Source: Lophium mytilinum (lineage: Eukaryota). From it: a stretch of 64,000 bases of DNA. Both the position numbers and the translations under genes were made by a program. Below, one piece after another: positions 10,951-40,531 of the stretch. The stretch covers positions 1 to 64,000 of the forward strand of contig MU004183.1 in the NCBI GenBank assembly GCA_010093605.1, in the 5' to 3' direction. The first letter of the stretch is position 1; every line of letters begins with the position of its first letter. Below the pieces are notes generated by a model that made no database searches, was not told where the DNA came from, and worked only from the letters and a program-made list of their open reading frames with translations.

Positions 10951-11009
10951 AAGGTTAATTTTCTCTATATTAAACTTGCTTCTCCCTACCTAACTCTAAC
11001 CCTCTAGCC

Positions 11010-16492: not shown

Positions 16493-16861
16493 CTAAAGAC
16501 ATCTTTGAACGGTGCAACGAGTCTTTCAATCAGCCTCGCCTCATCCCAGTTCGCAACTCGCCCCTCGAAAGATCAAAGCTTTGGAAGCTTGGTGATAAAA
16601 GATTCGACGTGCTTGTCTCCAAGATACCTTGAAATGCAACACCAGAGACTTTCTACTTCACGCAATATCCGTAGTATTGGCCTATCACGCCTTTGTAATG
16701 CCGATGAGCTCAGTCCGCTGCCTCACGTTTGCGCAATCAGCAATTCTTAATGGTTTTGACCGATATAGTACTAGTACGCCCCACTACCGTCCATCAAGGT
16801 TTACGTGGCCGAAGATGCGATCTCGTGAAAGCCTCTTGTCCAACAGCTTGCTCACCACTTT

Positions 16862-18084
16862 TTAAGTCTGAGAGCCTCCGTTCTTCATGCGGTTGCACTC
16901 TGCACGGTGGCGCTTCCAATCAGCTTTCTGGCAGTCTCGAGAGCAGTACTTCGTGACCACGCAGGCCGCGCAGGACTGGACTTCTCCCGCCTTGCCGCAA
17001 CCTCCACAACGCTTGCGGCAATCTCCTTTGTGTCTACTCCAGTCCACCATGGCGCAATTGACTGAGCAGTACTCCTCGTTGAAGCATCCCGTGCACTCGA
17101 GGAAGTCGCAATGTGCATCCAAGCGGGTACGGTGGCAGGTAGGACACCGTCGTGGCTCGTAGGTCTTTGGCTGCCAGCCTGGCGGAGCCTCATGAAGTTC
17201 TGTAAGCCAGTCAGTGGCGGTTGCCAGTATGTTAACGATGGAATGACAGCAGCAGTCGAGCTCTAGACATACCCTTCCTCTTTGGTCCTGGATTTGTAAC
17301 CGGATCCCAGCTCTTGTGATGAAATTCGACTTTGTCCCCAACCAACTCTATCTTGAACGTAGCGTTCGGATTGGCGTTGATGGACCGGCACGTCTCCTCA
17401 GCCAACTCCTTCTGTGGTTCCCACGACTTGCTAGCATTCTCGTCGGCATCGTTGCTCGGGTAGCCGATGACCAATTTCCCAGTGCCCAAGTCAGTGATCG
17501 GCATACCAACGGTGTTCGCGATCCTCTGAGTGCACCAAGCAGCAATACGAGGGTCTGCAAGGAACTCCTCCCCGAATGCTTGGTGTTTGGGATCCTCCTT
17601 ATTCTTGTTGCGGTCTATAGAGAGCTGGGTGAATAATCGTTGGTCCTCTGGCGCGAGGGAGTTGAACTGCTTTTCCGCTTCTTCGTTCTTATGCTTGTTG
17701 AAGAACTTCACTGCCGTATCGGTGGCATAGATGTCAATTTTCTGGTTGTACCAGACCTCGCCAGTGTTCTTGTCGATTCTGAGCTTCAAAGATGCGTTAG
17801 GGTTGTCGTTCACGCGCTTGCAGAAGGCTTCTACGTCCGACTCCGAGACGTGACCAGCCGCAACGGCTTTGTCAAAGAGGGCGCGGAATCCGGGATCGTC
17901 TTTCGAGACGTCCAATTTTATCAGCAGGGATTCTTCTCTGAGCGCATCCCAATATCCGGCCTGGACGAACTCCTGCCAGGCGCCGTGTTGGGGATGGGAA
18001 GGGTTTTGGGCGTCCGTCAATATAGATGTGGCCGCTAACTGTTCTTCCTTTGGAAGTTGGTCCAACACACGGCGGGCTTCAGCG
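16862..18084 (-). pseudogene. zf-MYND paralog A, 3' part (duplicated N-domain + two MYND fingers), disrupted by hAT insertion
   Basis: Exon 18084-17273, phase-1 intron 17272-17200, exon 17199-16862 with CPTC..CTGC..YCSVNC..DWSRHKGDC and CGGC..CAAC..YCSRDCQKADWKRHRAEC. No ATG on this side; the first ~20 codons lie at 30517-30575. Confidence 0.9.
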
Positions 18085-18470
18085 CAGTGAAGGAACTAGA
18101 CTGGAGCCATTTAGACTAGAGCCGGATGGAGGCACTTAAAAAAGGCATTAGACTAGACTAAGATTCTATTTAGTTAGACTAGATTTAAGGCTATAAATAA
18201 TTCTAGAGCTCTAATACTTTTTATATATATAAATATATATATAGTATTAAGGTTAATTTTTATAAGGCTTAGCTTAGAGGTCTGCAATTCTTAGCCTCTT
18301 ATTAGTTAACTTATTCTATACTAACTAACTAGCTACTTAGTCTTACTATTCTTAGCCTTACTATTTTATACTTACTATAGTCTATATACTTACTATAATA
18401 TATATACTTTTTATTTTATAATATAGCCTTTCTATTTTACTTTACTAATAGATAGCTAAGAGGTTACGCA

Positions 18471-18670
18471 TGTTATGGCCACATGTTTATACTATAACAC
18501 GTGACTAGGGTTATATAATAGAGGCTCTATAGAATAGGTAAACGTTGCTCCGCCCTTTAGGTTATTATAACGTCCGTTCTAGAAACCTCTTCCTCTCTTG
18601 TATTTATCTTTTATTAATATTAATACTATTTAATCTAATAATTCCAACGTTCTAACCTTAAGCCCTAATA
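18471..18670 (+). repeat. 5' LTR
   Basis: TGTTATGGCC...AAGCCCTAATA, colinear with 26907-27106. Confidence 0.95.
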
Positions 18671-21600
18671 TAAGATAAATACCCTCCTAGCTTCCGGGAG
18701 CAATGGAAGTAACCCTTAGAAAAATTTTTCCGTAATAGAGTGCGCTTTTATAATAAGCTATAGTATACCTATACCTTTCTATATAGTAACTATTAGCAGA
18801 GTTGCGGACCCCTAATAAAGACTACACTAACATAGTGTTCTATTAGCAGTGCCGCGGGCCCCTAATAAAGCAATCTAACTATTATGCGCGATGTTAGATA
18901 ATAGACCTTATAACTATAGCAGACGCTCTATAATAAGCCCCTATAATAGAGGGGTAGTAGCAGCACCCTAGAAAGTCCCCACTAATTTATTAATTGCTTT
19001 AACGGCTCTATAACTTTATCTATATTGCTATTGCTGTATAGAGACTAACGCCTAGAAAGCTTAGTATTAATAATAGCGCGTGCGCGCGCCTAGTATTACT
19101 AACCGATTGCTATTACTATATAGAGACTGACGCCCGGAAAGCTTAGTATTAATAATAGTAAGCCTACACGCATACTTAGTATTATAGAATAAAGCCCTGT
19201 AGACTATCTATTTCCTATATACTTTCTATTATCCGCATACTACCCGTTTTATAAATAAACTAACTAACCTAATAATTTACTATAGCTAACCTCCGCAATT
19301 AAGCGCAACTAGCATACTTCTCTAGGACAACTCCGCAACTAACTGTAATAGATACTAGTTTCTTAAGCCTTCCACGCGCCAGCGCGCGTAGTAAATAACC
19401 TAAATTTGTTAATAGCTCGCATATAAATACGGCAGGTTGCCCTCTATAAGTTTTCTCTCTTATATACTAACTTTTCTATACCCTATTACATGGCTAACTC
19501 TAACTGCTATACTTTTAACTATGCTAAAGCCCTACAGTTTAGCAACTCTGTTTTAGGCGGACGCCCTCCCAGCGGACGCCCTCTTAGCGACGTTAATTAT
19601 ATCCTAATTAATCCTCGCCGCATTATATCGCACTAAGACGACGGTTCTCTTAACCTACGCCACCTTCTTACTATAGATAATAATAATAATATAACGCAGA
19701 TTAATTATAGCCTATAGCCTCCTCTTATTTAGCTAGTAAACCCACTATTATAAGGCGCGACTTAATCGTAGTTGTAAACTTTAGCTGCTACTTTCTAACC
19801 GGCTCTATCTATTAGACTAGTCCCTCCTGTAACGCCCGCTAAGCTCTAATATTATTAAACTAAGTTCGGTACTATAGGCAAGCCTCTACTAGTTACTCTA
19901 GCTCCTCTAGTAGAAACTACTGTAGAGGAGACCGCACTCCCGCTCTCCCGCGTTAGTAGCTATGTACTAGGCAACTTTAATTTACTAGATAGAATTAAGG
20001 ATATAACTACCGGCCTTAATAATATAACTGTCGCCTATAATAAGGACTCCTTCTCTAACTTTAACTCGGCCGATAAATATAACCGCCAAGAAGAGGAATA
20101 TTAGTTTAGTAGTAACGTAGATAATAAAGTAAATAAGCTCTAGATAGCCTACTAAGGCATTAATATTAATATTAATACTTCTAACGCAACGGCCTACTAT
20201 AATACTGCCTCTAGGCCTAACTATTAGTCCTGTAACCCTAACTATCTAAGAATAGTACCTTTTTATAGTAGGCCTTCCTCTAATATATCTCCCTTATAAT
20301 ACTAGTCTACCCGCATTAAGTCTATTACTAGATTTAACACCCCGGACCTAGCTTAGTAAGCAGCAGGCATAGAATAGAGTAATAAAACTAAGACTACTAT
20401 AATACGCGTTAAAGACCGTTAATAATTACGTCTTACTATTACTTAGCGTGCTAATAGCTCTATCTTTAAGATGCATTACGGAGATAGAGCCTATAAGTAA
20501 TATAAGCTACGGACCCTATAGAACCTTACTAATAACATCTAACTCGCACTATAATAGTAGTGGAACTATATTATATTAACTTACGCAGAATATAAAAACT
20601 ATAAATATAAAATAGACATTGCTGTATAAGAGTAAGACGCCGCCAATATTATAGTTATTAGCCTTAATAAGAAATACTCGCTTATAGACGGCAAACTCTC
20701 TAAGCTTTATATATAAGTTTGCACCCTAGGTAATACACTAGAAGCTAAGAAGGTAAACTTAGCACGTATATATTATAGACGCAATAAGAAACACGCCTAA
20801 TTCTAGGCTTAAATAGCTTAGCTTAACTAGCTAAATATTATACACTAGCGAGCCTTAGACTAAATTACTTAGCTTAAAGCCCAACTTTATTATAATATGC
20901 CGGCGGAAGGCAACCTACACGCTAACCTAGATAGACACCCATCTAATTATAACTCTACTAACGACGGCTCCCCTTCTCTACTAAAGGGACCGTACGTTCT
21001 CAACCTAGAGGACTTCTAGCGCAACTATATTCTAGCACAACACTTTACTACAGCTAGAGGTAGAGAAGAAGGAGGTAATTTTAACCTAAGTAGCTTTACT
21101 TAGCTATAGGTCTACGGGCCCGTGTATCCTTAATATAGATAATAAGGCCCTTAACCTAAGTATATACACCTATAGGACTTTAAATTAGGGGCGAAGGTAT
21201 ACGCGGTATAGAAGAACTATCTACTCTATTTAGTTTAGGTGGACTAATAGACCTATCCTAATACTATAACCTAAATCTAATTAGTAGTTAGCTATTATAA
21301 AGGACGCGCATATAAGGTTATAGAGGACCGCGGTTTACTTACATCTAGTAATCTATACCGTTTACTTAAAGAGCTTATCTAAGACCTAGACGCTGCATTC
21401 TAGGAAAATAACTCTATCTAACGTAACCGCCTTCTAGATTAACTTAATAGCAAAGGTATAAAACAGCGCCCTAATAAGTATATAGCTAACTTCCTCTAAC
21501 GCCTTAACGCAGTTCTTAATAGACTTAAGTACGACAAGACTAATAACGGACTTATAACCTAATACCGTTATCTTAAGGAAACGCTACGCATAGACCTTAT

Positions 21601-24600
21601 TAATTAAATTAACTTTAGACTTAAATCCTAGTACTAAGTAAAGGATAACGTTCTATATAAAGACCGGCATAGGCTTTAACGTAAAAAGCGCGCTAAAAAG
21701 GAGCTCCTTATAGTATAGAGTGCAGCACGCCGATTTAATAATATACACGGAAATAATAGCCGCTATAATTTAAACCGCGCTTAATACAAAGTATCTACTA
21801 CTAAAACTAATAACTATATTATAGTTAAGAAAACTACTATAGTTCTATTACTAAGCGTCCCACCGCATATTTGCATGCGCCTTACTAAAGAAGGGCGTTG
21901 CTTTAGTTACTTTAAGAAGAACTACCGCGTAGGTAATCTAGAGTGCCCTATGGCCGGTAAGACTATATTACAGTCTTAGCGCAATAAGCGCTTAACCGCC
22001 GCGGGCATTAATAATGTGGAACTTAACGCCTTTAACTATAATAGCGACGAAGAATGCCAGTATAAATATAAATACAACGATAAATAAGAATATAATAAGG
22101 ATAATTATAGAGCTTACTCTAATAGCTCGGGAAAAGCTTAATCTCTAATAAAAGTTATTATTAGAGATAGTTAGAAGACACGCTAGCTTAAGCTCTTGCA
22201 CATATCTAGGAGCTTAAGCTACCTTCTCTAAAGCCTCTAGATATTAAACTCTCTACTTGCGCCGTAGGACTTACCCTACTATCTAGTAAATAGATAGACT
22301 TCGACTATAAGATTAAAACTTTAACCGGAACGGTTAAATCTATTATCCTTATAGACTCTAGATGCGGAGGTTTTATATTTATATCTATAAGCTTTACTAA
22401 GCACTATAAGCTTAATATTTGTAAGGCTACTCTATAAAACGTTAAGTTACTAAATAGATCTATATCTATTATTAATAAAGTAGCCAAGGTTACTATGCAA
22501 ATTAATAGTTACTATAATAAATTTTAGACCCTAATCTACAACCTTAAAGGCTACAATATTATTCTTGGCATAGGCTAGCTTATTATGCACGACGCCTATA
22601 TAAAGTTCGGCACGCGCATAATATAACTAGATTCCGACTACTATTATTCTTAATGCCTTATTAACTATAAACTAGTTTACGTCTAGTCTAAAGACCCCGT
22701 CGCCCGCACTAGTAAACGCCTGTTTAAGCAGAAACTTAACGCCTAGCTTACCGCTTTTAAGGCGCTTAATATTAGCGCGGTATCTAGCAATAAGTACCTA
22801 TATAACGCCTAGTAATTACTAGAAGAAGACACTATCTATATATGGCCCAAGCACTTTAAACTGGCGCTTGTGGATAAGAAAGTAGAAGCCTAAGCGCGCG
22901 CTTAAGGACGGTTATATAGCCATAACATTATTATAGGCCTAGCTAATTTTACTACTAACCTAGCTGTAATTAGCCTCTATGCAATATCTAAAGACGACTA
23001 GCGGAAGTTCTTTAAGAAAATAGAGCGCAAGCTAATAACGCGCGATAAACTTAAAGCACTAGTACCTATAGAATACTAGGGTTTCCTTAACGTATAGGAT
23101 CTAAAAGAAGTAAATAAGCTTCTACTACGTCGCAAAGTAAAGAACGGTATAGATATTAACCACTATATTAATATTAAACTAGAAACTAAGGCACTAGCCC
23201 GCAAAGTCTATGGACTTTCACGAGACGAGACGCTAGTTATTAAAACGTTTATTAATAAGATGTATGGTAAGAGCTATATTAGGAAAAGTAATAGTTAATA
23301 TATAGCCCCTGTTATTATTATCCGTAAGCTAGGCGGAGGCCTACGCATTTGCGTTAATTATTAAGGCCTTAACGTGGTTATAATTAAGGCCTGGAACGTT
23401 CCTCCAGCTATAAAGGACACCTTAGCCTTACTTAAAAACGCTTGGTACTATACTAAGTTTAATATTATTACTACCTTCAACGCCATTTAAATGCGAGAGG
23501 GTAATAAAAAGTATACTGCATTCCTTATAAGATACAGTCTATTTAAATTTATAGTTCTCCCCTTTAGCTTATGTAATGCGCCGGCCACGTTCCAAGCCTT
23601 TATTAACGACGTCCTCCTGGAATACCTAGACAATTTCTATACAGCCTATCTTAACAATATTCTTATTTTTAGTAAGACGCTTAAAGAACACGTTGGTTAC
23701 GTTAAGAAGATCCTCTAGCAACTTTATAAAGCCGGCCTATTCCTTAATATTACTAAATGCGAATTTTATAAACAAGAGGTTAAATACTTAGGCGTTATTA
23801 TTAGCGTTAACGGCCTTAAAATAGATCCAGCCAAAATCGAAACAGTTATTAACTAGCTCTAACTACGGAACCTGCGGGACGTATAAGCGTTTCTAGGTTT
23901 CTATAACTTCTATAGACGTTTTATTATGGCTTACTTAGACATTGCAGGTCCTCTTACTAGGCTTACTAAGGCGGAAGTTCGCAAGTAGTTCGCTTTTCTA
24001 TAGTAAGAAGGCAGCTTAGAAGACTTCTCCTTTAAGTAAATAAAGTAGGCGTTCGTTAACGCCCTATAGATGGCTTACTTTAATCTAGATCTAGAGACGT
24101 AGGTAGAATGCAACGCATCTAATACTATTACGGCAGCTATACTATCTTAAATGCAGGCTAACGGTGTTCTACGTCCTATCGCGTTTATATCCTATTAAAT
24201 AAGTGCAGCCTAACTTAACTATTAGATTTATAATAAAGAACTACTAGCAATCGTCCGCGCCTTTAAGGAATAGCGCATAGAACTTACCAGCCACGGATAC
24301 GGTAATCTAATTAAAGTTCTTTTAGATTACTGCACCCTGCAATACTTTATGGAAACTAAGCAGCTTAACTAGCAATAGGCTAGATGGGCCGAGTTTCTTT
24401 CCAAATTTAACTTTTAAATTACTTACTAACTAGGCAAGAATAATGGCAAGGCTAATCTGCTAACTAGACGCCCAGGTAATATACTAGATTAAGACGACGA
24501 ACGCTATAAAATCTAACAGTAAACAATCTTAAAGGACTATAACCTAGAACTAGAAATGCATTACGCTATTAAACTAGCCTATATTATAATAGACGGCGTC

Positions 24601-26906
24601 ACCTATAATATAGTTACCCTTGCAGTAATAATATACAACCTTAGCAAAGTGGAACTTAATTAAGGGGAGTTTTAGAGTAACCTTAATAAAGAACCACAGG
24701 AGCTACTAAGGTAGGGGGAGTTATAGAGTAACCCTACTAAAGGTGCAGTAGAGTAAGATATTATAGATCGCATATAAGAAGCACTTATAAACGACGCTGT
24801 TAGTAATGCTATTAAGGACGCTATTAGAGTAAGACTACGCCGTCTACTAATAGACATTATTAAGAACTACGGCGTTAAACTTAAGCTCTACAACTATATA
24901 ATTCACGACGGCCTAATTTTTATTTAAAAGGACCGCCTATATATACCTGCTAAGGAGGAACTCTAGATAACTATTATTAAGAGCCTTTATAAGCCCCCTC
25001 TAGTTAGCTATAGTAGAATAATATCTATATATAATTATATTTTAACATACTACTTCTAGCTATAGATAACTTATAACGTTAATTAATATATTAAGGCCTG
25101 CCACCCGTGCGACCGTATTAAGCACGCTTGTAATATAAAGCAAGGCTTCCTTAAACTGCTGCCTATTCTAGATTAATACTAGACTAACCTTATAGTAGAC
25201 TTTATAGGACCCCTACCTATATACTTCTAATTTAGAAGGGACTACTAATATATTATAGTAGTAGTTAATAGACTCTCTAAGATGCGTAAATTTATTCCTA
25301 TAATAATAACTAACGCAGAGGAAGTTGCCTAAGCCTTTCTAGAATAGATCTGGCGCATAGAAGGATACCCGGAATTAATTATATCTAATTAAGGCCCTTA
25401 ATTCATTTTAACCTTTTAGTCTTACCTATGCAAGCGCATTAGCACTAAGCTAAAGCTATCTACCGCCTTCTATTCTAAGATGGATAGATAAACCAAAATC
25501 ACTAATATAGGTCTAAAACAGTTTCTTTAAGCATACATTAACTATTAATAAGACAACTAGGTTAATTACCTCGCCGTCGCTAAATTTAAGGCTAATTCCA
25601 TAAAAAACGCCTCTACTAGAGTAGCTCCCTTTATAGCTACTAAAGGCTATATTCCTAGCGCAGGCACTATACTAGCCGTATAACTACTACCTAATATAAA
25701 TGCACTAACAATTTAGCTTATAGAATGAGCAGATAGACTTATAGATAGGCTTAATAAACTACGCGCCTTTCTCTATTAAGAAATTAAATGGGCCTAAGCT
25801 AAGTAAAAGAAATACGCTAACGCTGGATAATAACTAGCTTATATATACTATCTAGGTAATATAGTTATACTTAACACGCGCTATATTAAGATAACTCGCC
25901 TAAATAAGAAGCTTAATTTTAAGAAGCTAGGTCCTTTTAAGATTCTATAAAGCTATAAAAACGGTAGTATATATAAGCTTAAGCTACCTAAAGGCATAGA
26001 AAACCTGCACCCTATCTTCTATCCTTAGCTACTCTACCTAGCCGACGCCGTTCCTATAAAAGGATAGCGTAATCCTAAGCCCCCGCCTATATAAATAATG
26101 CTAACTTATTAGGAAGGCAACGCTAAAGAGGTTGTTAATTACCGTCTTAATAGAAGACAACTTAATCTAGTTATAGGTAAAAGGGGTATGCTTTAGTATA
26201 AGATTAAATTTATTAGCTATAATAAGCTCTAATAGGACAATTATAAATACGCCGAGGGCTATCCCCGCCTTATTACAGACTTTTACCACCGCTATCTATA
26301 TCCTAAGAAACTAAAACCTTATCCGTTATTTAAACTACTATCGGACTAGAAACCAACTTTAGCTGCTATCCTTGCCGTAATAGACCTCCGCATAACTAAC
26401 GCTGCGGAAGCTACGTAATTTAATTACCGGACCGGCGGCTAAATTAATTTATTAAGGAGGCCCAACCGCGGACGTGCGCAATAATTAATGCGATGTAATA
26501 GCGCAGATTATTACGAGCACCTAGCAGCAGGCTAGTAGCTATAATAGCTATACGGCTCCTTACGGCCCCGTTATAGCCGGCCCTAGTTTAGACGAATAAC
26601 TATTGCAAGGTAATGCATAGTAATACTGCGCATAGTAATACTGCGCATAGTAATACTATGCGTAACAACACTACTAAGCTTATAATAGGAAGACTACACT
26701 AAATAGTAAGGCTGTAGAAGACTATATAAAAATGGGAAGAATAAGTAATCCTCTATAAATTAATTTATTTCCTTTATTTACTTATAATTATAGCATAATC
26801 TAGTATTTTATTTTATAGATATTTAAGCGATTACAGGTACTCTAGTATAGAAAGGACCCTCTCTTATAAAAGCTTTAATAGGGGGCTTCTTTAGAGGGGG
26901 GAGACG

Positions 26907-27106
26907 TATTATAGCTACACGTTTGCACTATAACACGTGACTAGGGTTACGTAATAAAGGCTCTGCGGAACGGGCGAATGTTGCTCCGCCCTTTAGGTTA
27001 TTACAACGTCCGTTCTAGGAACCTCTTCCTCTCTTGTATTTATCTTTTATTAATATTAATACTATTTAATCCAACAATTCCAACGTTCCAACCTTAAGCC
27101 CTAACA
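26907..27106 (+). repeat. 3' LTR
   Basis: TATTATAGCT...AAGCCCTAACA. The differences from the 5' LTR that I compared are transitions. Confidence 0.95.
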
Positions 27107-28553
27107 ACGCACTATAGATTTTAATACTCTCTACTAACCTTATTACTATTATAGCTAATAAATAAGCCTCTAGACGCACGGTTACTGCTATACTTAGTAT
27201 TTATATTTAATAATCTTTTCCTTCTAATAACGCCGTTATTCTAGCTTCTAAGTTAATTAATTCCGCCTATAATATTACTATAGACCCTATTTATATCCGT
27301 ATTAATAGCAGGATATATACTTATTATAAGCACTTATTTAAGCTAATACTTACTATAAAGTAATATACGTTACACGTATAGAACTAGAGTAAGAATATTT
27401 ATTTAAAGAATAGCCTAATTAGATAACTAGATCTTTACTACTACTACCTTTATAAGAAGTTAAAAAGACTATAGAACCTATATATTATATCTAAAGGCTA
27501 ATTAACTACTATAGATTATCTTATTAAGGTATATAGGTTTACGCCGCTAGAATATAGATACCGCTAGAGAGTATATACTAATAAGTATTAAGGTGCATAA
27601 GCTAGATAAGGAATTAAATACGTTTTAGATATTATAATAAGGGCCTCTACTAGAATATAGCACTGCTAAAGCGCTTAGTATTATATCTAATCTTAAATAA
27701 CTTAAATAACTAATAATTTAATAGGTTATCTACTATTATATTACCTTCTTTTAATTTAAGAATATATACTTTAGGGCGGTACTTAGCTTCTTAGTCCCTA
27801 GTATTAATAGGTACCTGCTAAAAGCTAGAAAGATAATATAGAAGTGGGTAATTACCGCGTAGTAAGAAAAGAAGAATATACTTAGGTAAGAACTTAGTAT
27901 AATATATTATCTATTACTATTTATTATTATCTTAATGCGCTATTAGCTAATATTACTTCTCTAGATAGGAACTTAATAATATATATAGCGCGATTTCTAT
28001 CTTATTTAATCTTTAGATATTACTAAATAGACTAGCTATTCTTAGCGTTTATTTCTACTTTATTAACTACGCTAGAAAGTATTAAACGGCCGTTATAGCT
28101 CTTTAAGAGGTTATTAGTAAGTATACTAGAGAGAATATTATATATAGCTTACTAGTAGTAATATAGAACTATAGTATATAGAAGAATATTAGATTCTTTA
28201 TAGGTAATAATGTAATAAGTAATAATAAGTATATTAATATTATCTTGCGGGCGCTTTATCTATTAATAATAGCTAAGTAATAGAAGGTACACTGGCTATA
28301 GTATTTTAGCTATATTATTAATCTATGCGCATAGGATTTTATTATTAGAAAGAATGCGGATAAGATCTACTAGTAAATTAAAGCCGCCTATATAAATTAG
28401 AACTATAGTAAAGTCTAACGCCTTTAGAAGAAGTATAGAGCGGTTAAATTAATATAGAACCTTATCTATTATATCTATAATAGTTCTTAACGCTATAGTA
28501 TTTTCTAATATATATAAAAAGGTAGCCTTCTTATAGAATAGAACGGGCTTAAG

Positions 28554-28959
28554 GTATATACTATTTATACTTTCTATTTTTTTAATTAGCCTTACTATTT
28601 TATTAATTAGCCTTACTATTTTATAGTATATACTTTCTATTTAGCTATATACTTTCTATCTTACTATATACTTTCTATTTTACTATATACTTTCTATTTT
28701 ACTATATACTTCCCGTTTTACTATATAGGCCTTAATCTATCCTTTTAAATATAGAAAGGATAAGAATAGAAAGTATATAGTAAATAGAAAGTATATAGTA
28801 AAATAGAAAGTATATAGCTAAATAGAAAGTATATATAGTAAAATAGAAAGGCTAATTAATAGAATAGTAAGGCTAATTAATAAGAAGTTTAGCTAAAGCC
28901 CCGCCGGCCGGTTATATAGCTATAGCGCACCTCTATACTATATACTAACGCGTTAATAG
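28554..28959 (+). repeat. hAT transposase intron filled with an inverted array of ~19-bp minisatellite units
   Basis: Units like tatatactttctattttac at ~28560-28725 are mirrored by gtaaaatagaaagtatata at ~28765-28885. GT at 28554 and AG at 28958-28959 restore the frame into the TRWNS motif. Confidence 0.8.
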
Positions 28960-30508
28960 CTTATCTAAAATAACTAAACCTAATAGAACTTATTATTCTT
29001 AGCTATTAGCTACTTTCTAAATTACTATAAGCGCATCTAGGAGTTTTATAAGATATATATTCCCTTAGATAGCGCTAAAAAGCTATAGATAGATAATATT
29101 CTTACTAATACCTAATAGAAATAACTTAAGTACCTCTATATAAACCTGGAGCTATTCTATAAGGCTATACTTATAGTAGAAGGTTATAAGATATTACTTA
29201 TAAATTATTTTATAACTCTTAATTAGCTAGTTAATAGCCTTAACGCGTTAAAGGCTTAATTTATAGAGTTATTATATAATATATAACGGCGCACTAAAGT
29301 TAAGGTATATTAGTACCTCTCTAACTACACCTTAATAGTATAGGAAAAGGCTAATAAGTACTACCTCTTAACTAATAAGGAATTACCTGTATACTACGCT
29401 GCTATTATCTTTAATTCTTCTCTTAAGACAAAATAGTTTAATAAGAAGTAGAAACGGCACCCTATTAAGAAGAACTATATTAAGATTATAAATAAATTTA
29501 TAGAGAACTACTAGTAAAGTAGCTATTATAGTAATACTACGTATCTCTATAACTAGTAGCCTATATTACCTAAACCTATACTAACGCCTCTTTCTTAATA
29601 GCCTTAAATATATACGTCCGCATAAGACTATAAGCGCCTTAAGATTATATATAATAGTAATAATAGTAATAATAATAGCGTTACTAAGATGCCTAATTTC
29701 TATAAAGAATATATTAAGACCTCTACTATATTACCTATATAAGTATATAGCCTTAAGGGTAATAATAAATACCTCTCTATTAATAAGATAATACTATAGT
29801 AGAATAATAGATATAATTTCTAGCTAGATCTTGCATAGTTTATATTAGACATTCTTATAGTGCCGCTAATATCTAATAACTATAAAAGGCTATTTAGTAG
29901 AGCTTCTATTATACTTAAAAAGTAATGCAGGCGGCTTTAGATAGATATAATTAAGGTAAATAAATATCTATAGTTAGTATTTAGGCCGCTACTAAAGAAT
30001 ACTTTTAATAATAATATAGAATATATAGAGTTACTTAGTATATTATATATAATACTAAGCTTACTTATAGAGGTAGTAGTAGTATAGTTATAGGCCTTAT
30101 AATAGGTAGAGGTAGATTAGAAGGATAATAGTAATAATAATAATAATAGCAATAATAAAGTAGTATTAGAAGCGGCGGCAGTAGCTATAATAGCTAAGGC
30201 CAATAGTAGAGTATATAAGAAAGAGACACTTTTAATTAATATATAAATAGAAAGTATATATAAAGAAATAGGAAGTATATATAAAGGCTATATAAAATAG
30301 AAAGAATAAATAGCTCTATACTAAGCTTTAATACTAAGATTTTATAGCGCTAAACTTCTTTAGGTAATATACTAACTATTTTAGGTAACTATCTATATAT
30401 TACCTCCCTTATAGATAATTTAGGAGCGCTAGGAGCTCTATAGCAATTCCTGTAGATGGAGTAGATTTAAGGCGAAATCTAGTCCAGTCCAGTCCAGTTC
30501 CATTACTG

Positions 30509-30575
30509 CTTTAGCGTCTCCGCTGAGAACCTTAAGTATGAGCGCGGGGTCGGTGTAGGCGGTTTCGGAGGGCAT
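30509..30575 (-). pseudogene. zf-MYND paralog A, 5' fragment (start codon) stranded beyond the hAT element
   Basis: ATG at 30575 reads MPSETAYTDPALILKVLSGDA. It joins in frame through the TSD to EARRVLDQLPKEEQ and aligns with the paralog C N-terminus MPPKLNPKDPDFMLRVMRGEAEAVKVYSALP. Confidence 0.9.
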
Positions 30576-32007: not shown

Positions 32008-32703
32008 ATGGCAGATATCGACTTTAGCAACGCCGCAACGGCCATGAAACTCATCCTCAACCCGACCAATGAGCTTACCCGCGCCTTCAACGCTCTGTCG
32101 CAGACTGAGCAGGACGCAATCCTGGAGACGATCTCCAACAGTGCTCTCCCGACGACCAACTTCTTTCCCGATAACGCGAGTGATCCTGCATTCCGCGATG
32201 TCGAGTTGCAGTTCTACGCGGATGACTACCAGATGCCAGTAGAAGATACGGTGCCACCTGCCTACTGGGGCGAGGACGGTAATGGACTCTACCGCATTGA
32301 AAAAAAGGAGAGCGGAGAGGGTTACGTGGTCAGACGCAAGTGTTGGAGACCCGATGAGGACCGTAAGTGCGAGCATGCTGAATTGCCGTAACGGTACATT
32401 CAGGTCGGCTCAAGCTTACATATCAAAGCACAGGAAGAGAGGCCAACCGGTTGGAGCCCAAAGGTCTACAACCCGAACCTCAACAATACGCCGCAGGAGC
32501 TGGTTTGCTCCCATTGCCAAGCCTCAGGCGAGCTGTTCAAGTGCCCCGTGTGCAACATCATGCCTTATTGCTCTGAGCGGTGTCGGAATGCTGACTGGGA
32601 GATTCATCGGGAACGTTGCGAACATGACGCGGTCATCGGACATGCCGGATGGACTAGGAGACACCCGAGACTGAGCGAGGTTGGCAGAGGCTCCCGTGCT
32701 TGA
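32008..32703 (+). CDS. zf-MYND paralog B (single N-domain + one MYND finger), ~209 aa
   Basis: Exons 32008-32362 and 32429-32703 (phase 1). Exon 2 reads PQEERPTGWSPKVYNP...CSHCQASGELFKCPVCNIMPYCSERCRNADWEIHRERC. Confidence 0.88.
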
Positions 32704-33392: not shown

Positions 33393-34658
33393 TCAGGCAA
33401 CCCACTTATAGTCCGGGAGTGGAAACGTCTTAGTATTGGCAAAGGCGGCACCAAGGTACTTCTGTGCGAAATCGGCGATGCCCGTCCAAGCGATAAAAGC
33501 GAAAGCGTAGTTTCGCAGCCATATCCCCCAGGTTGTCTGTGGGGCAAGAATCGTGGTGATGAACGGTGGGATCTTCTGCATTTCCTTGATGATCGGCCTC
33601 ATTTGTTGCTCGTAGCCCTTCAGACCGGCTGCGAGGTCGCCTGTATGTTTGCCAACCTCACCAGCCAAGATGTAGGCGCCGGCGAGGGCGAGACTCGTAC
33701 CACCACCGGCGGGCCCTGTCGCGTAGCCTGCATCGCCGACCAGCACGAAGCGTCCATTGTACAGACTTGGGAGCTTGACCTGGACAATCTCGCTGGCATA
33801 GAAGTCTTCGGAGTCCATCATCTCCTGCATGAAATAGTTGCTCTTCCATCCGGCGCCCTGGTAGTGTTGGGCTATGTATCTTTTGAGCGAATCGTCACCG
33901 TGGATCGAGGCCTGGCGAAAGGGTAGCGTGGCGTCGAGCTTGCCTCGTGAGTGAATGTTCATTAACAAAACTCGACTATGACCTGATGGATCTAATCCAA
34001 CACTCATAAAACGGCCGCCGACGGCACTATAACCCTGTCCCACTCTGCTTCCTTGGAGTAGATCCTGATTTATGGTGAAGTAAGCTGCCCAGGAGTTGGA
34101 TGGGATGATGTGATCCCGGACACTGCACCCAAAACCTATAGCTCGAGTCCTCGAGGTCGCGCCATCACAGCCAATGACAAGGTCGTACTTCGAAGTTGCT
34201 GATCCGTTTGCAAACTCAACTGTGATGGGACTGCCATCTGACTCGCTTTGCTGCATTGAGGCAATTTGCTCATTGAAGATGTACGTGATGTTGTCGTCGT
34301 CTTTGGTGAGGTCGAAGATAATCTTTGCCAGGTCACCACGAAAGATCTCGTACTCTGAGACGAGAGACTGCTGATCAGGATTCCCAGTGGCTCTGATGGT
34401 TCCATAAGGTCGGCCGTCTTCACGGACGAAACTTATACCCTCTTCCTGCGTTGACTTGGCTCGCACCTGAGCCTCCATGCCCGACATTTTCCGCATGACA
34501 GAGACGCCAGCGGTGCGAATGTCAACGGCCTGCCCACTAGTGCGTAGTTCCGGGAAGCGCTCGATGACCGTGACTTGAGCGCCAGCTTTGGCCAACCAGT
34601 AGGCTGTCGCCGGGCCGGCGATGGATGCTCCCACAACAAGGACCTTCAGTCCAGACAT
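33393..34658 (-). CDS. FAD-dependent monooxygenase/oxidoreductase (FAD_binding_3, aromatic hydroxylase-like), 421 aa, intronless
   Basis: Rossmann motif VLVVGASIAG, DG motif DLVIGCDGATS, and GD motif FVLVGDAGY...GGGTSLALAGAYILA. Confidence 0.93.
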   Translation of the reverse strand: MSGLKVLVVGASIAGPATAYWLAKAGAQVTVIERFPELRTSGQAVDIRTAGVSVMRKMSGMEAQVRAKSTQEEGISFVREDGRPYGTIRATGNPDQQSLVSEYEIFRGDLAKIIFDLTKDDDNITYIFNEQIASMQQSESDGSPITVEFANGSATSKYDLVIGCDGATSRTRAIGFGCSVRDHIIPSNSWAAYFTINQDLLQGSRVGQGYSAVGGRFMSVGLDPSGHSRVLLMNIHSRGKLDATLPFRQASIHGDDSLKRYIAQHYQGAGWKSNYFMQEMMDSEDFYASEIVQVKLPSLYNGRFVLVGDAGYATGPAGGGTSLALAGAYILAGEVGKHTGDLAAGLKGYEQQMRPIIKEMQKIPPFITTILAPQTTWGIWLRNYAFAFIAWTGIADFAQKYLGAAFANTKTFPLPDYKWVA

Positions 34659-36599
34659 TGTTTATGGTTGATAACCAACGAAACTAATTCTACTCTGGGA
34701 TATCCTAAAGCTTAGCGATCCAGGAGATGATTCGTGAAGGTTTCCGGCAATGAACAGGTGTATGGAGTTTCTGGCAGGCCTCCTGTGGTCCGTTGGTGTT
34801 TGACTGTCGACTGGTTGTATTAGAGGTCAATTCGACACGAAGAATGGAGGTCGAGGGTGGGTATACCGCTAGATTAGCTCAATACCCAACACAGCTTAGC
34901 GGCTTGACGAGACAAGCCATCTCTACTTCATACCATGGTATTCTGATACCTAAAATCGGTAGGATGCAAGCTTAAATATGATCATTTTATTCATGTTCAG
35001 AATAGTTCAGGCTATCAGAATGCAAGGGTATCACGATCAGAAGACATTTCAGGGTATCACGTGATGATTGATCAGAGAATGACGTCCTCTTGGAAATTAT
35101 GAGCGAATTGTGCTTCGACTGAAGCTCATCTCTCTAATAGTTCTCACAATGCCCCCGTATACTCAGCTTAGCGGGCGTTCAAATGGGCGCATTGCAGGCT
35201 TGTCGCTTTGAGAACGGAAGAGTGGTTTAGCGCTCCGTAGAATCGGCACGCGCAGGACGCGAAACCTCAATACCGACTCTTTTCCAACGGCGCGTCGTCC
35301 CAGTATCATTCTTCAAGCTTCACAGCATCCTCCCATCGCGATCCTCCGCCCCCAAGTCTTCATCTTCATACGTCCGCCTAGGTGAGCCTCTGCAATAAAC
35401 TGCCTGACGGAAGGGCATCTCGAAAGCCAGGCGCGCATAACACGACAACGACCAAGTGCAATGCATTCAGCCTATCTCCATTCCCCCCAGCCGACCCCCA
35501 AGCCGTCGAATCGCGGATCTGGACTTCTCAAGAGTCCGGAAGGTAATAGGCCCAGGCTACCCACTCTCGCTCTTGTATTGTTCTTCTCTCAGCATGTCTA
35601 GGCCGGAGATTCGGGAGAGTATGCTGATGCTGCCTGAACAGGTCTGCAATCCTCGCCTCGCAAGCGACGTAATCATCGCTGGCTTTGACGGCCTGGTACA
35701 TACATCTACGCATACCCCACTCTTAGGTGTTACGCTAATACGACAGAAGCTATAACTGCGGCCGTATTGGGTAGGGTGGTGAGGTTTTCTTTGCGAACGT
35801 CAGTTTACGATCTTCTTCAAGAGCGTTCTTACCTGCGTTTACTGCCTTCTTTCATCTCATACAAACATCAGTCCTACTGTTCCCTTCGCCGTCCACATGT
35901 ATCCTATATCATAATCATAGTGCCGTGGGAGATGCTACGCCTTGACAGGTCATGACTTTGTACTCGTGAGAGTCTGTACAGTTTCGGTTGCCACTGCCTG
36001 GGGTACTCCCCCCGAGCTTCCAGGATCTAGGTGCAGGTAAAGCTTCATGCAATGCGATCTGCGTCGTCTTTTGAATTGCCAACTTCCTGTTCGCTGAGCC
36101 ACTCCTAACGGCGATATCGAGTGAGCAACAGCAGAGCCGTGCAGCCCTGGATCCGCAGCCCTGGATCCGTGGTGACGGCGTAAGCGTTTATATAGTACAA
36201 GTAAAGCTGCCTACTGATGGGCCCACTGCACACTAACTGGACTGCCCCTAGCATTGGTTTCTAGCTGCTGAAGCGGCAGACAAGCATTGGACTGTCTGTG
36301 TGCTATGTTCCCAGGCTCATAGCACGAACAGAAGATGAAAAAAGCACCACCTAAGTTGGCCTTCATGCTGAGCATGCCCAGGAGAGCCTTCCTACTCCTT
36401 GGCTCTACATTACTACGGGCATTTTAGGCCCAATGGTCCACGAATGCTCCGAGTCCAGCCTCAAATAAGGTCTCATGCTGCTATGCGGAGAAGTTCAATT
36501 TGCCAGCCCTCCTGGGACCATTTTATTCCACAACAACGCCCGGGTATATGAGCTCCAGTCTAGTGGCAAAACTGTTCACACTTTTGCAGATATCATTGT

Positions 36600-37154
36600 G
36601 AACGCTTCGGCATGCGGACTTGCGATGGCGACTTTGCATTCGAGGTAGCGAAATTGGACCTTATCGGGCTTTTTGTTTCAAACACCGCACTTTTATGCCT
36701 CGCCGCGGGGTAGTAGACGACCAGCTTCCATACCTCCCGTTCCTCCTCTTGGACTAAGGATGATTAGCCAGTCCGACATGATGAAGATGAAGCGTCTCAG
36801 TGCATACCCCCATCACCAGGTGACCAGACTTCCAGCGCGTCAGATCGCTACCCAGTATCTGACCTTGTCAACTCGGGGCTCCCACATACAAGGTTGTCGA
36901 CTTCGCTCCAGTAAGCCGGCTGGGCCACGTCGATCACAGACTTTGCCTGTAACTTCGCGAGTTACTACAGCCCGATGGCTCGGACCCCGAGGTTATTCGC
37001 ATTGTTGAGGCCATCATCATGGCGCTGCCGATTTTCTCGGATGTAGCTGCTTGCTCGGATTCGTAGAAGTCGAGGAACGCAGCCATAGTTTCTGGCTCTG
37101 CGGTCATGAACACCGCGGAGTCACGGGATCGTTGAAGTCCTTCCTGGGTGACAT
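36600..37154 (-). pseudogene. zf-MYND paralog E, frameshifted pseudogene
   Basis: ATG 37154 MSPRKDFNDPVT / fs / AVFMTAEPETMAAFLDFYESEQ / fs / NNANNLGVRAIGL**LAKLQAKSVIDVAQPAYWSE...VWSPGDG. Intron 36807-36754, then VQEEEREVWKLVVYYP / fs / KCGV*NKKPDKVQFRYLECKVA (decayed MYND). Matches paralog B (DTVPPAYWGE, PQEERPTGWSPKVYNP) and D (NANNPLFR). Confidence 0.75.
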
Positions 37155-37400
37155 TGTAGCTGGTTCCGATCTTTTCAATTAGCAGGGTCAACCGATGAAA
37201 TAACCGACAAGGCACACTGTGTAATGAAGAGAGAGTTAATGTTTTTGGGGCCGAACAAAGGTCACTAAGTGCAAAAGCTGCTGCGTCCGTGCACTTCTCC
37301 CTTGCACTGTAATCTAAGTTGCCTTATATCTCTCCGGCTTCCTTAGCCAAATCACCCTCGCAACTACACTCACCAAAGACTACCCGACCTTCTCGCAACC

Positions 37401-38638
37401 ATGCCCCCCAAGCTTAATCCCAAAGACCCGGACTTTATGCTTCGCGTTATGAGAGGCGAAGCTGAAGCAGTCAAGGTCTACTCAGCCCTCCCTAGAGCCG
37501 ACCAAAAGCTCGCTTGTCAGCTCCTTGCAGACATCAAAGACCCTTCTCACCCCCAGCACGCCGCGTGGCAGCAGATGAAGGAAGACGGCAGTTTCGAATC
37601 TGCCAAAGCTACCTTTATGTCCTATGGATCCGCCATGCCCACCACCGACCCTGGCCTCCAAGCTCCCCGACGCCCGAAGGACCCTAATGAAGACCCGAAA
37701 GTGTACCAAGAGAAGCTAGAAGATCTCTTTGAACGCGTGAATAGCGATCCGGACGCATGCATCTGGGACGAGCTAAACAACAATACCCGCACTGTTGACT
37801 CCAAGACGCGGTCCCGCAAGGTTGACATCAACGATCCCAGTCTTGCGCTTCGACTCCGCCGCAGGTACAGAGATGACGAGGTGGAGGATGAATGGATCAC
37901 AATGTCCAGAGAAGATCAGCGGGCGTTCATCGACCTCATGAAAGACCGTGCCGCGAATCCCAAGGCTGCAAAGCACAAGGGTTTTTGGGATGCCGTGGTT
38001 CATGATCCCGAGACACAGGCACTAGAGACTCAAAGGGTTGCCAACCGCATAGGCATGCCGATCGTGGACATGGGAGGCGGACGCCTAGTTATCAGCGTAG
38101 CGGATCATGATCCTGCGGTGCCTTTTGTTGGAACAGAAGAGCTTGCGAGGGAGATGTGTAAGAGGGTTAACGCCAATCCCAAGGCGCCGTTTCATTTCGA
38201 GTTCACCGGAACAAGCATCAGACTGCTGCCCAAGAACTGGAACCCAGCCACCGAGCCTCTCACCCAGCCTCGTAAGTCTTTCATCGATTTGCAAAAACAT
38301 AAGCTAATCAGTAAATAGAGATCCATAACGCATCTCCCGAGTTTCAACCCATAACCTATGAGCCGGAACATTGCCCTGTTTGCGACCGCACTGGCATCGA
38401 GCTTATTCAGTGCGCCGGTTGCTTCAAGATGCACTACTGCTCGCCAAATTGTGCTGCACTAGACGCCGTCGAGCATGTCAAGAAGTGCACTAATCGTTGC
38501 GGCTCGTGTGGGAAGAAGGGGAACATGCAGGTCTGCGTTGCATGCATCGTGACGAAGTATTGCGGTCTGAATTGTCAAAGAAATGACTGGAGGGTACACA
38601 GATCGGAGTGCCATCAGATAACGGAGGGCAGGGAGTGA
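37401..38638 (+). CDS. zf-MYND paralog C (duplicated N-domain + two MYND fingers), ~396 aa
   Basis: Exons 37401-38271 and 38319-38638 (phase 1), with CPVC..CAGC..YCSPNC and CGSC..CVAC..YCGLNCQRNDWRVHRSEC. Colinear with paralog A (PSHPQH, QR(I/V)AN..GMPI.D.G.G.LVI, NANP.A.F). Confidence 0.92.
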
Positions 38639-39124
38639 AGAGAAAGAGGGCCTGGCGTGAGGATTGCCCTGAGAGTCAGGTCTCGAAGGCATGGTATTGC
38701 GAGAAATACCTCCATAACTACGTTTGCCGTCCTGAGCACTGAATGGTAGCACATTAGGTATCAGTCGCAGCGAATCCTAGATTACCATGCTCAGACCTTC
38801 ATTTTGACAGTCGTGATATGGCTTGAATAGCCCTGGACCTTCGCGGGCTTCATAGCTGACAAAGTCGCATCTCAAACCCGCTAATTTAGGCATTGTCTGA
38901 GATGAGTCTTCATATTGGCATAATCTGTTTTGTAAAGTGACACATGGACGAAGCTCTCATGGCGCCCCTCGCCTTACTACCTGACTTGAGACAGTGATGT
39001 CAAAACCAAGCATTTGATATCAAGCCAGTGGGCCAGCTCACTCATAAGAACAACCCAATTCACCACTAGAACGAAATGACTGCAAGGCCTGTGCAGGGTT
39101 TTTAATGCATCTACAGTATAAAAT

Positions 39125-39758
39125 GGCCGGTGCTAGGTGTACAACCCCTTTTTGCTGCTTGTACGATGGATTTGTGCTGCCCGTACAACCACCCCCCTAG
39201 CAGACCTTTCACCGCGTTTTAATTAGCTCGCTTAAAGGCCCGACTCCTCTAAAGCTATAGAAGATTTACCTAAAACCTTAACTACCTGCGGCCTTACTAA
39301 GAATATACGTCTAAATACTAAGGTAGACCTCGGGCGAAAGGTTACGCTACTAGAAGCGCAGGTACAGGGTTTCCAGCCTGTTGCAGGAAGTATAGCGCAG
39401 TTAACAGGCCAACAGCAGCCTTATAAGGCAGCTTATTAGGTAGCTAATAAGGATTATAATAAGTATGTAACTTTATATAGTGCTTATAGGCCGGCGGCGA
39501 TAGAAAGATAGTTACTATTAGGTGCAAAATTAATAGTTTAGGTATTCCCCTAGGCTGGTAGGCACATAGGTATACTAAATAGGAAAATTATAGATAAAAC
39601 AGGAAGGCTGCACGTGCAGATAGTAAAGGCCCGGAGGAAGCCCCGAGCCCTTCGAGCCAATTAAATCGCGGTGAAAGGTCTGCTAGGGGGGTGGTCGTAC
39701 GGGCAGCAAAAATCCATCGTACGAGCAGCAAAAAGAGGTCGTACACCTAGCACCGGCC
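39125..39758. mobile_element. Non-autonomous TIR element (MITE, probably Mutator-like), 634 bp
   Basis: ~105-bp TIRs GGCCGGTGCTAGGTGTAC...ACCCCCCTAGCAGACCTTTCACCGCG. 8-bp TSD TATAAAAT (39117-39124 / 39759-39766). Interior shows RIP-like composition. Confidence 0.92.
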
Positions 39759-39870
39759 TATAAAATCATATGTCTATTGCAACTTAGGCACCCTGACCGG
39801 ACGTCCTCTTTTACAAACACATCACACCACAAAATCGCCTACCAAGCAACTCCATTCAGTTTCCATCACA

Positions 39871-40531
39871 ATGCCTCCAAAGCCCGACGTCCACGACCCA
39901 AACACCATTGCCACGTTCCTCGCAATGCCCGGCTCCGGCCCAGAGGAATTTGAGCTTCTGTCCATCCCCGAGATCAACGAACTCCGATCCCTCATGCGTG
40001 CCGCCCTCATTCACGACTAGAATATGTTCGTGGCGTGGTTGGAAGCCAACGCAAACAACCCCCTCTTCCGGCCCGAGATGATGCAGCACATAGCAAATTA
40101 TTGCGACGTGCAGGTCACCGACGGCGTACCACTCAGCTATCTGAAAGTCTTGAATGCGGGAGACACAGGGGAGGGGCCGCCGAGAGAGTGCGTCGCAAGT
40201 GTCGTTCTGGAGCCGCCCCGGGTAATCGCTACGCCTCCGGATGGTGGTAAGTGGCCTACTATGCTGGGAGGTAGAAGAGTGTGAGCTGATCATGGGCGTA
40301 GTTCACGTCGACCCGGATTTCAAGGCGAAGACATATTATCCAGACCCCTCGTACGAGTGCAAGATTTGTCGTGTGCCACTTTCACTGCGGTTGTGCTCCG
40401 GTTGTGAGAAGTGCTGGTATTGCACCACGAGGTGCCAGAAGGAGGATTGGAAGCGCCACAAGGCGGAGTGCAAGCGGGCTCAGGCTGAGAAACGTCAGGA
40501 TAAGAATGCTGGAGAGTGCACGAAGGCTTAG
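39871..40531 (+). pseudogene. zf-MYND paralog D (single N-domain + one MYND finger) with one in-frame TAG
   Basis: ATG 39871 MPPKPDVHDP...AALIHD*NMFVAW (TAG 40018-40020). Phase-1 intron 40247-40301, then VHVDPDFKAKTYYP..CKIC..CSGC..YCTTRCQKEDWKRHKAEC. Confidence 0.85.

Follow-up and report, generated by a model that had tools for sequence, protein, structure and literature searches.

A cluster of intact and broken MYND-finger genes with an uncatalogued N-terminal module in the fungus Lophium mytilinum

The wood-inhabiting fungus Lophium mytilinum carries a five-member MYND-finger gene cluster in the window, that is, the whole 64-kb stretch of DNA analysed here. Two of the copies (B and C) are intact and three (A, D and E) are broken. 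Four copies, A to D, are certain, and the fifth, E, appears to be a decayed relic. We have little doubt that they form a real family with a new N-terminal module. Probably, this is a lineage-restricted family that was built by old local duplications within a part of the genome rich in transposons and orphan genes, and that is now eroding copy by copy, A, D and E having been broken in three ways.

The gene models, read with the standard code, are collected in Table 1. The long form of the gene (A and C) has two N-terminal modules and two MYND fingers, and the short form (B and D) has one shortened module and one finger. E was probably also of the short form. In all four of A to D, a phase-1 intron lies 6-8 residues ahead of the aromatic residue of a [W/F]xPxxYxP linker, and the phase and position of the intron are identical across the copies. 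The open reading length is 209 codons in B and 396 codons in C. The splice acceptor of B is predicted at 32428, with an in-frame alternative at 32437. In D, a Met codon follows shortly after the TAG, and the deposited annotation has C and D as one fusion model, which may not be real. The original prediction for this locus had proposed a MYND cluster with this shared intron and linker, and had called B and C intact, A split by a transposon, D interrupted by one TAG and E frameshifted. Our analysis bears out the first point in A to D and all of the calls.

Table 1. Positions of the family copies and of the associated mobile elements in the window
Feature	Position	Strand	Basis or remark
Copy A, start (ATG)	30575	-	insert 18085-30508 follows, then the remaining exon 1 to 17273
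Copy A, 5' fragment (ATG and first 22 codons)	30509..30575	-	C residues 1-24 against 30575-30504, 42% identity
Insert splitting A, 12,424 bp (12.4 kb)	18085..30508	.	terminal inverted repeats beginning CAGT, 8-bp target-site duplication
Copy A, remaining exon 1, two N-modules	17273..18084	-	sequence comparison with C
Copy A, phase-1 intron, GTATGT..CAG	17200..17272	-	
Copy A, exon 2: linker, two MYND fingers, stop codon	16862..17199	-	
Copy B, exon 1: single shortened N-module, 118 aa	32008..32362	+	
Copy B, exon 2: linker, one MYND finger	32429..32703	+	
Copy E, putative decayed relic, N-terminal ~100 codons	36848..37154	-	start motif and profile match
Copy C, exon 1: two N-modules, 290 codons + 1 nt, intact	37401..38271	+	
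Copy C, intron, phase 1	38272-38318	+	
Copy C, exon 2: linker, two MYND fingers, stop codon	38319..38638	+	
MITE-like element, 634 bp	39125..39758	.	106-nt terminal inverted repeats, 93% complementary
Copy D, exon 1: single shortened N-module	39871..40246	+	in-frame TAG at 40018-40020
Copy D, intron, phase 1	40247-40301	+	
Copy D, exon 2: linker, one MYND finger	40302..40531	+	

The N-terminal region had been described as one unrecognised domain. The domain is real and uncatalogued, but in A and C it is not a single unit: it consists of a module of about 130 aa that is tandemly duplicated, and the two halves of C align with each other at E 0.002. The copies are very diverged. The N-regions of A and C share 34% identity (tblastn 4e-74) and those of B and D match at 2e-4 (blastp), whereas B against C (E 0.06) and D against C (E 0.32) are not significant in pairwise blastp. 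These last values would fit a reading in which the homology of B, D and E to A and C is limited to the finger and the linker, with N-terminal motifs that are alike by chance or composition, and so would an HMM built from seven module sequences, which has no match above noise in the E region. The original prediction of a single family had itself hinged on alignments of B, D and E with A and C. For B and D, these are not significant pairwise but become significant when profiles are compared: in hhalign, the A and C modules together with a Mytilinidion resinicola protein match B and D along 84 collinear columns (probability 89.5%, E 2e-6). The homology of B and D to A and C thus rests on profile comparison and transitivity. 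In addition to the B-D match, a profile of B and D picks the second modules of A and C, plus E, as its only positive non-self matches, a start motif is common to A, C, D and E and found nowhere else in the window, and the intron is shared. With this evidence, we find it hard to credit that the copies are unrelated.

Copy E requires more care. When the B and D profile was run over six frames of the 64 kb, its only matches above noise were the second modules of A (6.2 bits) and C (3.6 bits) and a stretch at 36848-37006(-), which is the second-best non-self match (5.5 bits, iE 0.15); the next match has -2.0 bits. The start motif M[PS]P.{5}DP, a pattern that was relaxed after E had been seen, occurs three times in the window, at C, at D and at 37154(-), while shuffles average 0.035. 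In E, the motif is located 148 nt upstream of the profile match, where about 162 nt would be expected. As judged from sequence, these two weak but collinear signals suggest that E is a decayed N-terminal relic of the family, in which it had originally been placed, with at least two frameshifts and several stops, which has kept a B/D-like stretch at 37006-36848. A frameshift-tolerant single-sequence scan of the window with B and D gave E a score of 52, against 48 and 54 for the 95th and 99th percentiles of the background (214 bins), and has no discriminating power, as the true B-D pair scores only 53-54, within the top few per cent. MYND fingers had been ascribed to all five members; A to D carry full ones, but none was found for E anywhere in 34700-37400 (61 ORFs, PF01753). 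An overlapping frame of the E region resembles Pfam C2_GDE1 without reaching its cut-off (24.2 bits, with 27 needed; E 4.6e-5). At about 35973-36005(-), a stretch that could have been a linker relic was discounted, since its score of -1.1 bits is within noise.

The module has no counterpart in the catalogues that we searched. None of seven module sequences matches any Pfam family at E ≤ 0.1, in line with the original prediction. The best match in a PDB profile search has E 0.51, and ESM Atlas gave no usable match for exon 1 of C or of B. As modelled, the module would be of alpha/beta type. Its predicted structure has low confidence (mean pLDDT 65), and the full-length model of the A protein is unusable (pLDDT 50). 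Searches with the module model gave nothing at E ≤ 0.001 in PDB with Foldseek, and a best Z of 3.3 in a wide VIA-align search; with so weak a model, this outcome carries little weight.

The distribution of the module appears to be narrow. Against 1.84 billion representative proteins, the A/C module profile gave six matches. Two of them are to models of this genome itself and one to a 194-aa protein that lacks a finger; the other three, bacterial repeat proteins rich in Thr, Ser and Asn, we judged to be compositional false positives. Word-indexed searches of 5.8 billion clusters gave zero, one and two matches, all to the three non-bacterial proteins just mentioned, which are named as Lophium mytilinum and Mytilinidion resinicola, and two metagenome scans gave no relative. 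Outside its own genome, the domain is therefore found only in the M. resinicola protein by the kind of database search that had been proposed for it. These searches suggest that the family is lineage-restricted, so far seen only in Mytilinidiaceae, a dothideomycete lineage. The A/C profile missed B of the same genome, so more diverged fungal relatives could also be missed, and the restriction holds only as far as these searches see. In the literature on fungal zf-MYND proteins, Lophium mytilinum and Dothideomycetes, we found no description of this gene family.

The C-terminal part of the proteins is better defined. All four certain copies match zf-MYND (PF01753) above the cut-off of 22.7 bits (A 58.9, C 56.0, B 35.6 and D 38.6), with two matched stretches each in A and C. 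According to the available part of PMC3555993, from which we took the pattern, MYND is a C4-C2HC module that binds PxLxP peptides. The complete pattern with its eight zinc ligands is present in six of six fingers, those of the broken A and D included, and these six are the only matches to the corresponding regex in the six-frame window. The second finger of C matches the MYND structures of ETO/CBFA2T1, DEAF-1 and SMYD2 (2od1, 2jw6 and 5kjk) at E 6e-6 to 1e-4. Among the family proteins checked, only C has a PxLxP motif (residues 3-7); self-binding is thus not conserved in the family.

The broken copies were lost by different routes, and A was broken by a single transposon insertion. The target-site duplication CGCT[A/G]AAG is present on both sides of the insert (30516-30509 and 18084-18077), 18 of the first 21 terminal bases of the insert are complementary, and the two junctions show no significant nucleotide duplication beyond these 8 bp. 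With the insert removed, exon 1 of A is 871 nt long and has no stops. An 8-bp target-site duplication is typical of hAT elements, and the outer element has both this duplication and the short terminal inverted repeats of the hAT type. A hAT transposase (DDE and dimerisation domain) is absent from the insert in a six-frame Pfam scan, which returned retroelement domains only; the absence may be due to RIP decay, or the element may be non-autonomous. A Ty3/Gypsy-type retroelement on the + strand is nested inside the insert, with its RT, RNase H and Tf2 SH3 domains at about 23.4-26.0 kb, and 18473-18668 is repeated directly, in LTR-like fashion, at 26909-27104. The insert is strongly RIP-mutated (TpA/ApT 1.75; (CpA+TpG)/(ApC+GpT) 0.37), and RIP mutation is absent from the family genes. 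D has been hit by a nonsense codon and by a MITE in its promoter; the MITE-like element is flanked by a perfect 8-bp duplication, TATAAAAT, and ends 113 bp upstream of the ATG. E has undergone frameshifts and finger loss. The birth-and-death decay that had been proposed is well supported by the duplication-flanked insert of A, the TAG and MITE of D and the frameshifts of E, and we consider such a history highly probable. The breakage of three copies in five also fits a family that is losing its function.

Between A and C, dS is 3.9 or not computable and dN is 0.59. Since the synonymous sites are saturated, the copies are old, and the A/C dN/dS ratio cannot be interpreted. Therefore, the strong divergence may merely mean old duplicates, and accelerated evolution is not required. 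Despite this saturation, B and C and the two halves of A (once the insert is removed) are still open, and every finger has all of its ligands, which points to purifying selection until recently. The same observations argue against the alternative that the family is a useless lineage-specific leftover, in which all copies drift to pseudogenes and B and C have merely not yet been hit. This alternative would account for the disruption of three of the five copies and for the absence of a finger from the sole outside relative. On balance, we regard it as unlikely.

The surroundings of the cluster are transposon-rich and contain many ORFs without a Pfam match. The original prediction placed the cluster next to HET and F-box genes. 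A HET-domain gene (42002-44641(-), PF06985, E 3.4e-8) indeed adjoins D, 1.5 kb beyond it, but the F-box candidate in 50019-51140(-) is sub-threshold, as it reaches 19.2 of the required 24.3 bits. Pezizomycotina have many HET genes, and the adjacency of one is therefore weak evidence. In a tiny run of guessed RNA type (X1; 33 million letters, share 0.14), only an FAD-monooxygenase gene and a spliced transcript at 35323-35935(+) are seen, with no coverage of A5, B, E, C or D; a run of this size does not count for or against expression of the family.

This setting brings in a further alternative, a conflict locus for allorecognition, for transposon or virus defence or for drive with a suppressor, where the paralogs diversify under selection with fast turnover and perhaps act with the neighbouring HET-domain gene. 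By analogy, the idea is plausible. The MYND protein het-Va is part of an allorecognition locus in Podospora (PMC9262711, available part), and the HET neighbour, the transposons and Pfam-less ORFs and the three broken copies would suit such a locus. So would the arrangement of long and short forms in head-to-head pairs, with starts 1432 bp apart in A-B and 246 bp apart in E-C. However, the family has no death, NLR or nuclease domain: Pfam found no HET, NACHT/NB-ARC, HeLo, nuclease or other death, defence or sensor domain within the A to D proteins. In addition, the F-box neighbour is sub-threshold, the HET adjacency says little, and with saturated synonymous sites the divergence needs no acceleration. 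A conflict locus thus seems improbable to us. Still less probable, in our view, is that the genes function as pairs of a long and a short form with divergent transcription, A being paired with B and, in the inverted arrangement, C with E. In that case, the two members of a pair would use the new module for mutual recognition or for recognition of a common target, and the MYND fingers would recruit a partner. Such pairs might form a two-component self/non-self or anti-transposon switch peculiar to the lineage. The switch would then tolerate losing one member, as with A, E and D, or selection might even favour the loss.

For an old, locally duplicated and now eroding family, which we prefer, a simpler role can be suggested. 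Each protein combines the uncatalogued module, of predicted alpha/beta type, with the linker and C-terminal MYND finger. As no copy has a signal-peptide-like start, the proteins would be intracellular, possibly adaptors. The MYND finger or fingers may bind partner proteins at a proline-rich motif, as is known of MYND fingers elsewhere, and the new module may supply a lineage-specific binding or effector surface. The long form (A and C) would then be a bivalent version. We offer this adaptor mechanism tentatively, as a possibility. The family provides a new partner for the MYND finger, namely an uncatalogued module that appears restricted to a small fungal lineage. It also provides a worked example of young or orphan families in RIP-active, transposon-rich compartments being born by local duplication and then lost, with three routes of loss illustrated (transposon insertion, nonsense mutation and slow decay). 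Orphan families of a similar sort are common in filamentous fungi. Should this family turn out to serve allorecognition or genome defence, it would represent a new kind of system for that purpose.

Compared with known MYND proteins, all six fingers have the same C4-C2HC ligands as those of ETO/CBFA2T1 (NHR4), DEAF-1 and SMYD2. Unlike these proteins, the family has no NHR1-3, SAND or SET, and the remainder of its proteins is the uncatalogued module. In addition, A and C carry two tandem fingers, and the usual Trp is missing from the first of those in C. By analogy with those MYND domains, as characterised in the available part of PMC3555993, the fingers here would dock on proline-rich PxLxP-type peptides. 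Podospora anserina het-Va, which consists of SET, Rubisco-LSMT and a C-terminal MYND and belongs to the het-V allorecognition locus, is similar in that it comes from a filamentous ascomycete, ends in a MYND finger, is patchily distributed and has a neighbour gene of the cell-death type (PMC9262711, as far as its available text goes). It differs in that no SET or Rubisco LSMT domain is found in any copy here at E ≤ 1 in Pfam, and in that the neighbour here is a HET-domain gene and that of het-Va is HeLo-like. The closest relative is the 194-aa protein of Mytilinidion resinicola, which has one N-module. It matches the A/C profile at E 6e-13, and an alignment that spans 91% of the module has 29% identity. 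The deposited model of this protein has no linker or MYND finger and ends in a Lys/Glu/Ser-rich tail. Finally, MYND-finger genes expand lineage-specifically in mushroom-forming fungi, for example in the RING/MYND clusters of Polyporales (PMC8596683, available part). Those expansions likewise show lineage-specific gain and loss of MYND-finger genes, but they are families of Basidiomycota counted by the finger alone, whereas the one described here is a tiny dothideomycete family defined by its own N-module.

The sequence, from the dothideomycete Lophium mytilinum (order Mytilinidiales), was read in the standard code and contains four clear genes of the zf-MYND family, A to D (table). These models bear out the original prediction that B and C are intact, that A is split by a transposable element and that D carries one TAG. 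As also predicted, all four genes share a phase-1 intron at the same position, 6-8 residues ahead of the aromatic residue in a [W/F]xPxxYxP linker that runs into the MYND finger. The Pfam zf-MYND score exceeds the cut-off in each gene, with two fingers apiece in A and C. The complete C4-C2HC ligand set is present in 6/6 fingers, and the pattern is otherwise absent from the six-frame window. Against the solved MYND domains of ETO/CBFA2T1, DEAF-1 and SMYD2, the second finger of C gives a best E of 6e-6.

Coordinates of the family copies and of neighbouring features
Feature	Position	Strand	Remarks
Copy A	ATG 30575 + 22 codons; insert; exon 1 remainder to 17273; intron 17272-17200; exon 2 17199-16862	-	12.4-kb insert
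Insert in A	18085-30508		12,424 bp
Copy B	32008-32362 + 32429-32703	+	209 aa, intact; acceptor predicted
Spliced transcript	35323-35935	+	GT..AG introns ~35543-35641 and ~35696-35749
E, probable relic: profile match	36848-37006	-	two stops
E, probable relic: start motif	37154	-	MSPRKDFNDP
Open frame overlapping E	36937-37323	-	
Copy C	37401-38271 + 38319-38638	+	396 aa, intact
MITE-like element	39125-39758	 	634 bp; listed span 39117-39766
Copy D	39871-40246 + 40302-40531	+	one in-frame TAG, 40018-40020
ORF	45863-46612	+	no Pfam match at E <= 0.01
ORF	48956-49456	+	no Pfam match at E <= 0.01
ORF	51918-53579	-	no Pfam match at E <= 0.01
ORF	53738-55642	+	no Pfam match at E <= 0.01
ORF	59077-61539	+	16.8-bit EAD7 match only

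A is interrupted by a single insertion, flanked on both sides by an 8-bp target-site duplication, CGCT[A/G]AAG. The ends of the insert are inverted repeats starting CAGT, in which 18 of the first 21 bases match. When the element and one copy of the duplication are removed, exon 1 of A is 871 nt long with 0 stops, exactly the length of C exon 1. Inside the insert are Ty3/Gypsy-type reverse transcriptase and RNase H domains, an SH3 domain of Tf2 type and an LTR-like repeat with copies 8.4 kb apart; no hAT transposase was found in it. A long open frame at 18095 takes its first four codons from the transposon.

The first exons of A and C align end to end (34% identity, tblastn 4e-74). The first half of C exon 1 also aligns with its second half (E 0.002), so the single N-terminal domain originally proposed, although shared by A-D, is in A and C a module of ~130-150 aa present as a tandem duplicate. 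A single shortened module is found in each of B and D, and the two match each other at E 2e-4. Pairwise, B reaches only E 0.06 against the second module of C, and D gives no significant match to C; the relationship of the short to the long copies emerges, however, between profiles. Compared by hhalign with the profile from B and D alone, a profile that combines the four A/C modules with one outside homologue reaches a probability of 89.5%, with E 2e-6 across 84 collinear columns. In the six-frame window, the B+D HMM scores just three non-self places above 0 bits, namely the second module of A (6.2 bits), a stretch of E (5.5 bits) and the second module of C (3.6 bits), with the next-best place at -2.0 bits. 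On these alignments, we regard the homology of A, B, C and D as established.

The description of the N-terminal unit as unrecognised holds: 0/7 module sequences match any Pfam family at E <= 0.1, and a PDB sequence search finds no match (best E 0.51). An AlphaFold2 model from a five-sequence alignment has a modest mean pLDDT of 65, and its predicted layout is four to five helices, a beta-hairpin, a helix and a second hairpin. With this model, Foldseek returns no match at E <= 0.001 and VIA-align a best Z of 3.3, and the model is too weak for either result to speak to novelty or identity of the fold. Among 1.84 billion representative proteins, the A/C profile finds six matches. Two are this genome's own models, a C-D fusion and the 3' part of A with a spurious start, and a third is an uncharacterized Mytilinidion resinicola protein of 194 aa that has a single module but lacks a finger. 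The other three, long bacterial Thr/Ser/Asn-rich repeat proteins, were dismissed as compositional. Word-indexed searches of 5.8 billion clusters, metagenome scans and the ESM Atlas add no further relative. Since the profile missed B of the same genome, distant relatives may escape such searches.

E had been proposed as a fifth, frameshifted copy with a finger of its own. The start motif lies 148 nt upstream of the profile match on the same strand, a spacing that agrees with the 54 codons predicted by the profile, and at least two frame changes separate them. M[PS]P.{5}DP has three matches in the six frames of the window, in C, D and E, against 0.035 in shuffled windows, the pattern having been relaxed after the fact; A, with Ser and Pro swapped, joins as the fourth occurrence only under the looser M[PS][PS].{5}DP. 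Neither a MYND finger nor a convincing linker is present in 34700-37400. A frameshift-tolerant single-sequence scan does not separate E from background, nor does it separate the true B-D pair. The overlapping open frame has an unexplained sub-threshold match to Pfam C2_GDE1 (PF25329; 24.2 bits vs cut-off 27, E 4.6e-5, profile positions 52-118 of 150), which no other family copy shows. Judged by its motif and profile match, E is probably an N-terminal relic.

The copies are old. A and C differ by a dN of 0.59, and they have reached saturation in dS (3.9 for the N-region, not computable overall), so no unusual rate has to be invoked for their divergence. Open frames persist in B, C and both halves of A, and no finger has lost a ligand, which argues for purifying selection until recently. 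The window alternates between blocks of about 51% GC and AT-rich blocks of 25-38% GC with a strong RIP signature: in 18096-30497, TpA/ApT is 1.75 and (CpA+TpG)/(ApC+GpT) is 0.37. The corresponding values in the family genes, 0.53-0.64 and 1.20-1.42, indicate that these are not RIP-mutated. A second AT-rich block, 1-13000 (GC 0.30), has an equally strong signature (1.77 and 0.29). Unlike these degraded blocks, the MITE-like element between C and D is apparently young. Its 106-nt terminal inverted repeats show 93% complementarity, its 8-bp target-site duplication, TATAAAAT, is perfect, and it ends 113 bp ahead of D's ATG. The deposited model P0001 joins C, cut within its second finger, to D right past the TAG (38531 to 40021) across a 1.49-kb 'intron' that includes the C stop codon and the MITE. 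This splice is probably an annotation artefact masking D's stop codon.

The copies form two head-to-head pairs, with starts 1432 bp apart in A/B (30575/32008) and 246 bp apart in E/C (37154/37401). Each combines one long-type and one short-type copy (A with B, C with E), which suggests that a gene pair was duplicated in inverted orientation. The neighbours include a GH92 glycosidase gene upstream of A and an FAD monooxygenase gene between B and E. Reads of run X1, of guessed RNA type, extend over the monooxygenase gene and one spliced transcript and over no family copy; at just 33 million letters, the run speaks neither for nor against expression of the family. The transcript, seen in X1 contigs, sits in an intergenic stretch that had seemed empty, between the monooxygenase gene and E; its spliced form has no ORF of at least 90 aa and may represent non-coding RNA or untranslated sequence. 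The HET-domain gene expected beside the cluster is found 1.5 kb past D, whereas the F-box assignment reaches no more than a sub-threshold F-box-like match in one downstream ORF (19.2 bits vs 24.3). The region 45863-61539 is an orphan-rich neighbourhood.

The MYND finger is described as a C4-C2HC module that docks to partner proteins by way of their proline-rich motifs (PMC3555993), so the family proteins are most likely intracellular adaptors. Their fingers would dock a proline-rich motif of a partner, the lineage-specific function would come from the new module, with the long form as a bivalent version. PxLxP, a motif type bound by some MYND fingers (PMC3555993), occurs perfectly in C (PKLNP, residues 3-7, 37407-37421) and is absent from A, B and D; self-docking is therefore not a conserved feature. 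A conflict locus is another possible reading, for which the grounds here are the neighbourhood of the cluster and the decay of its copies. Its precedent is Podospora het-Va, described as a MYND protein acting as an allorecognition gene (PMC9262711).
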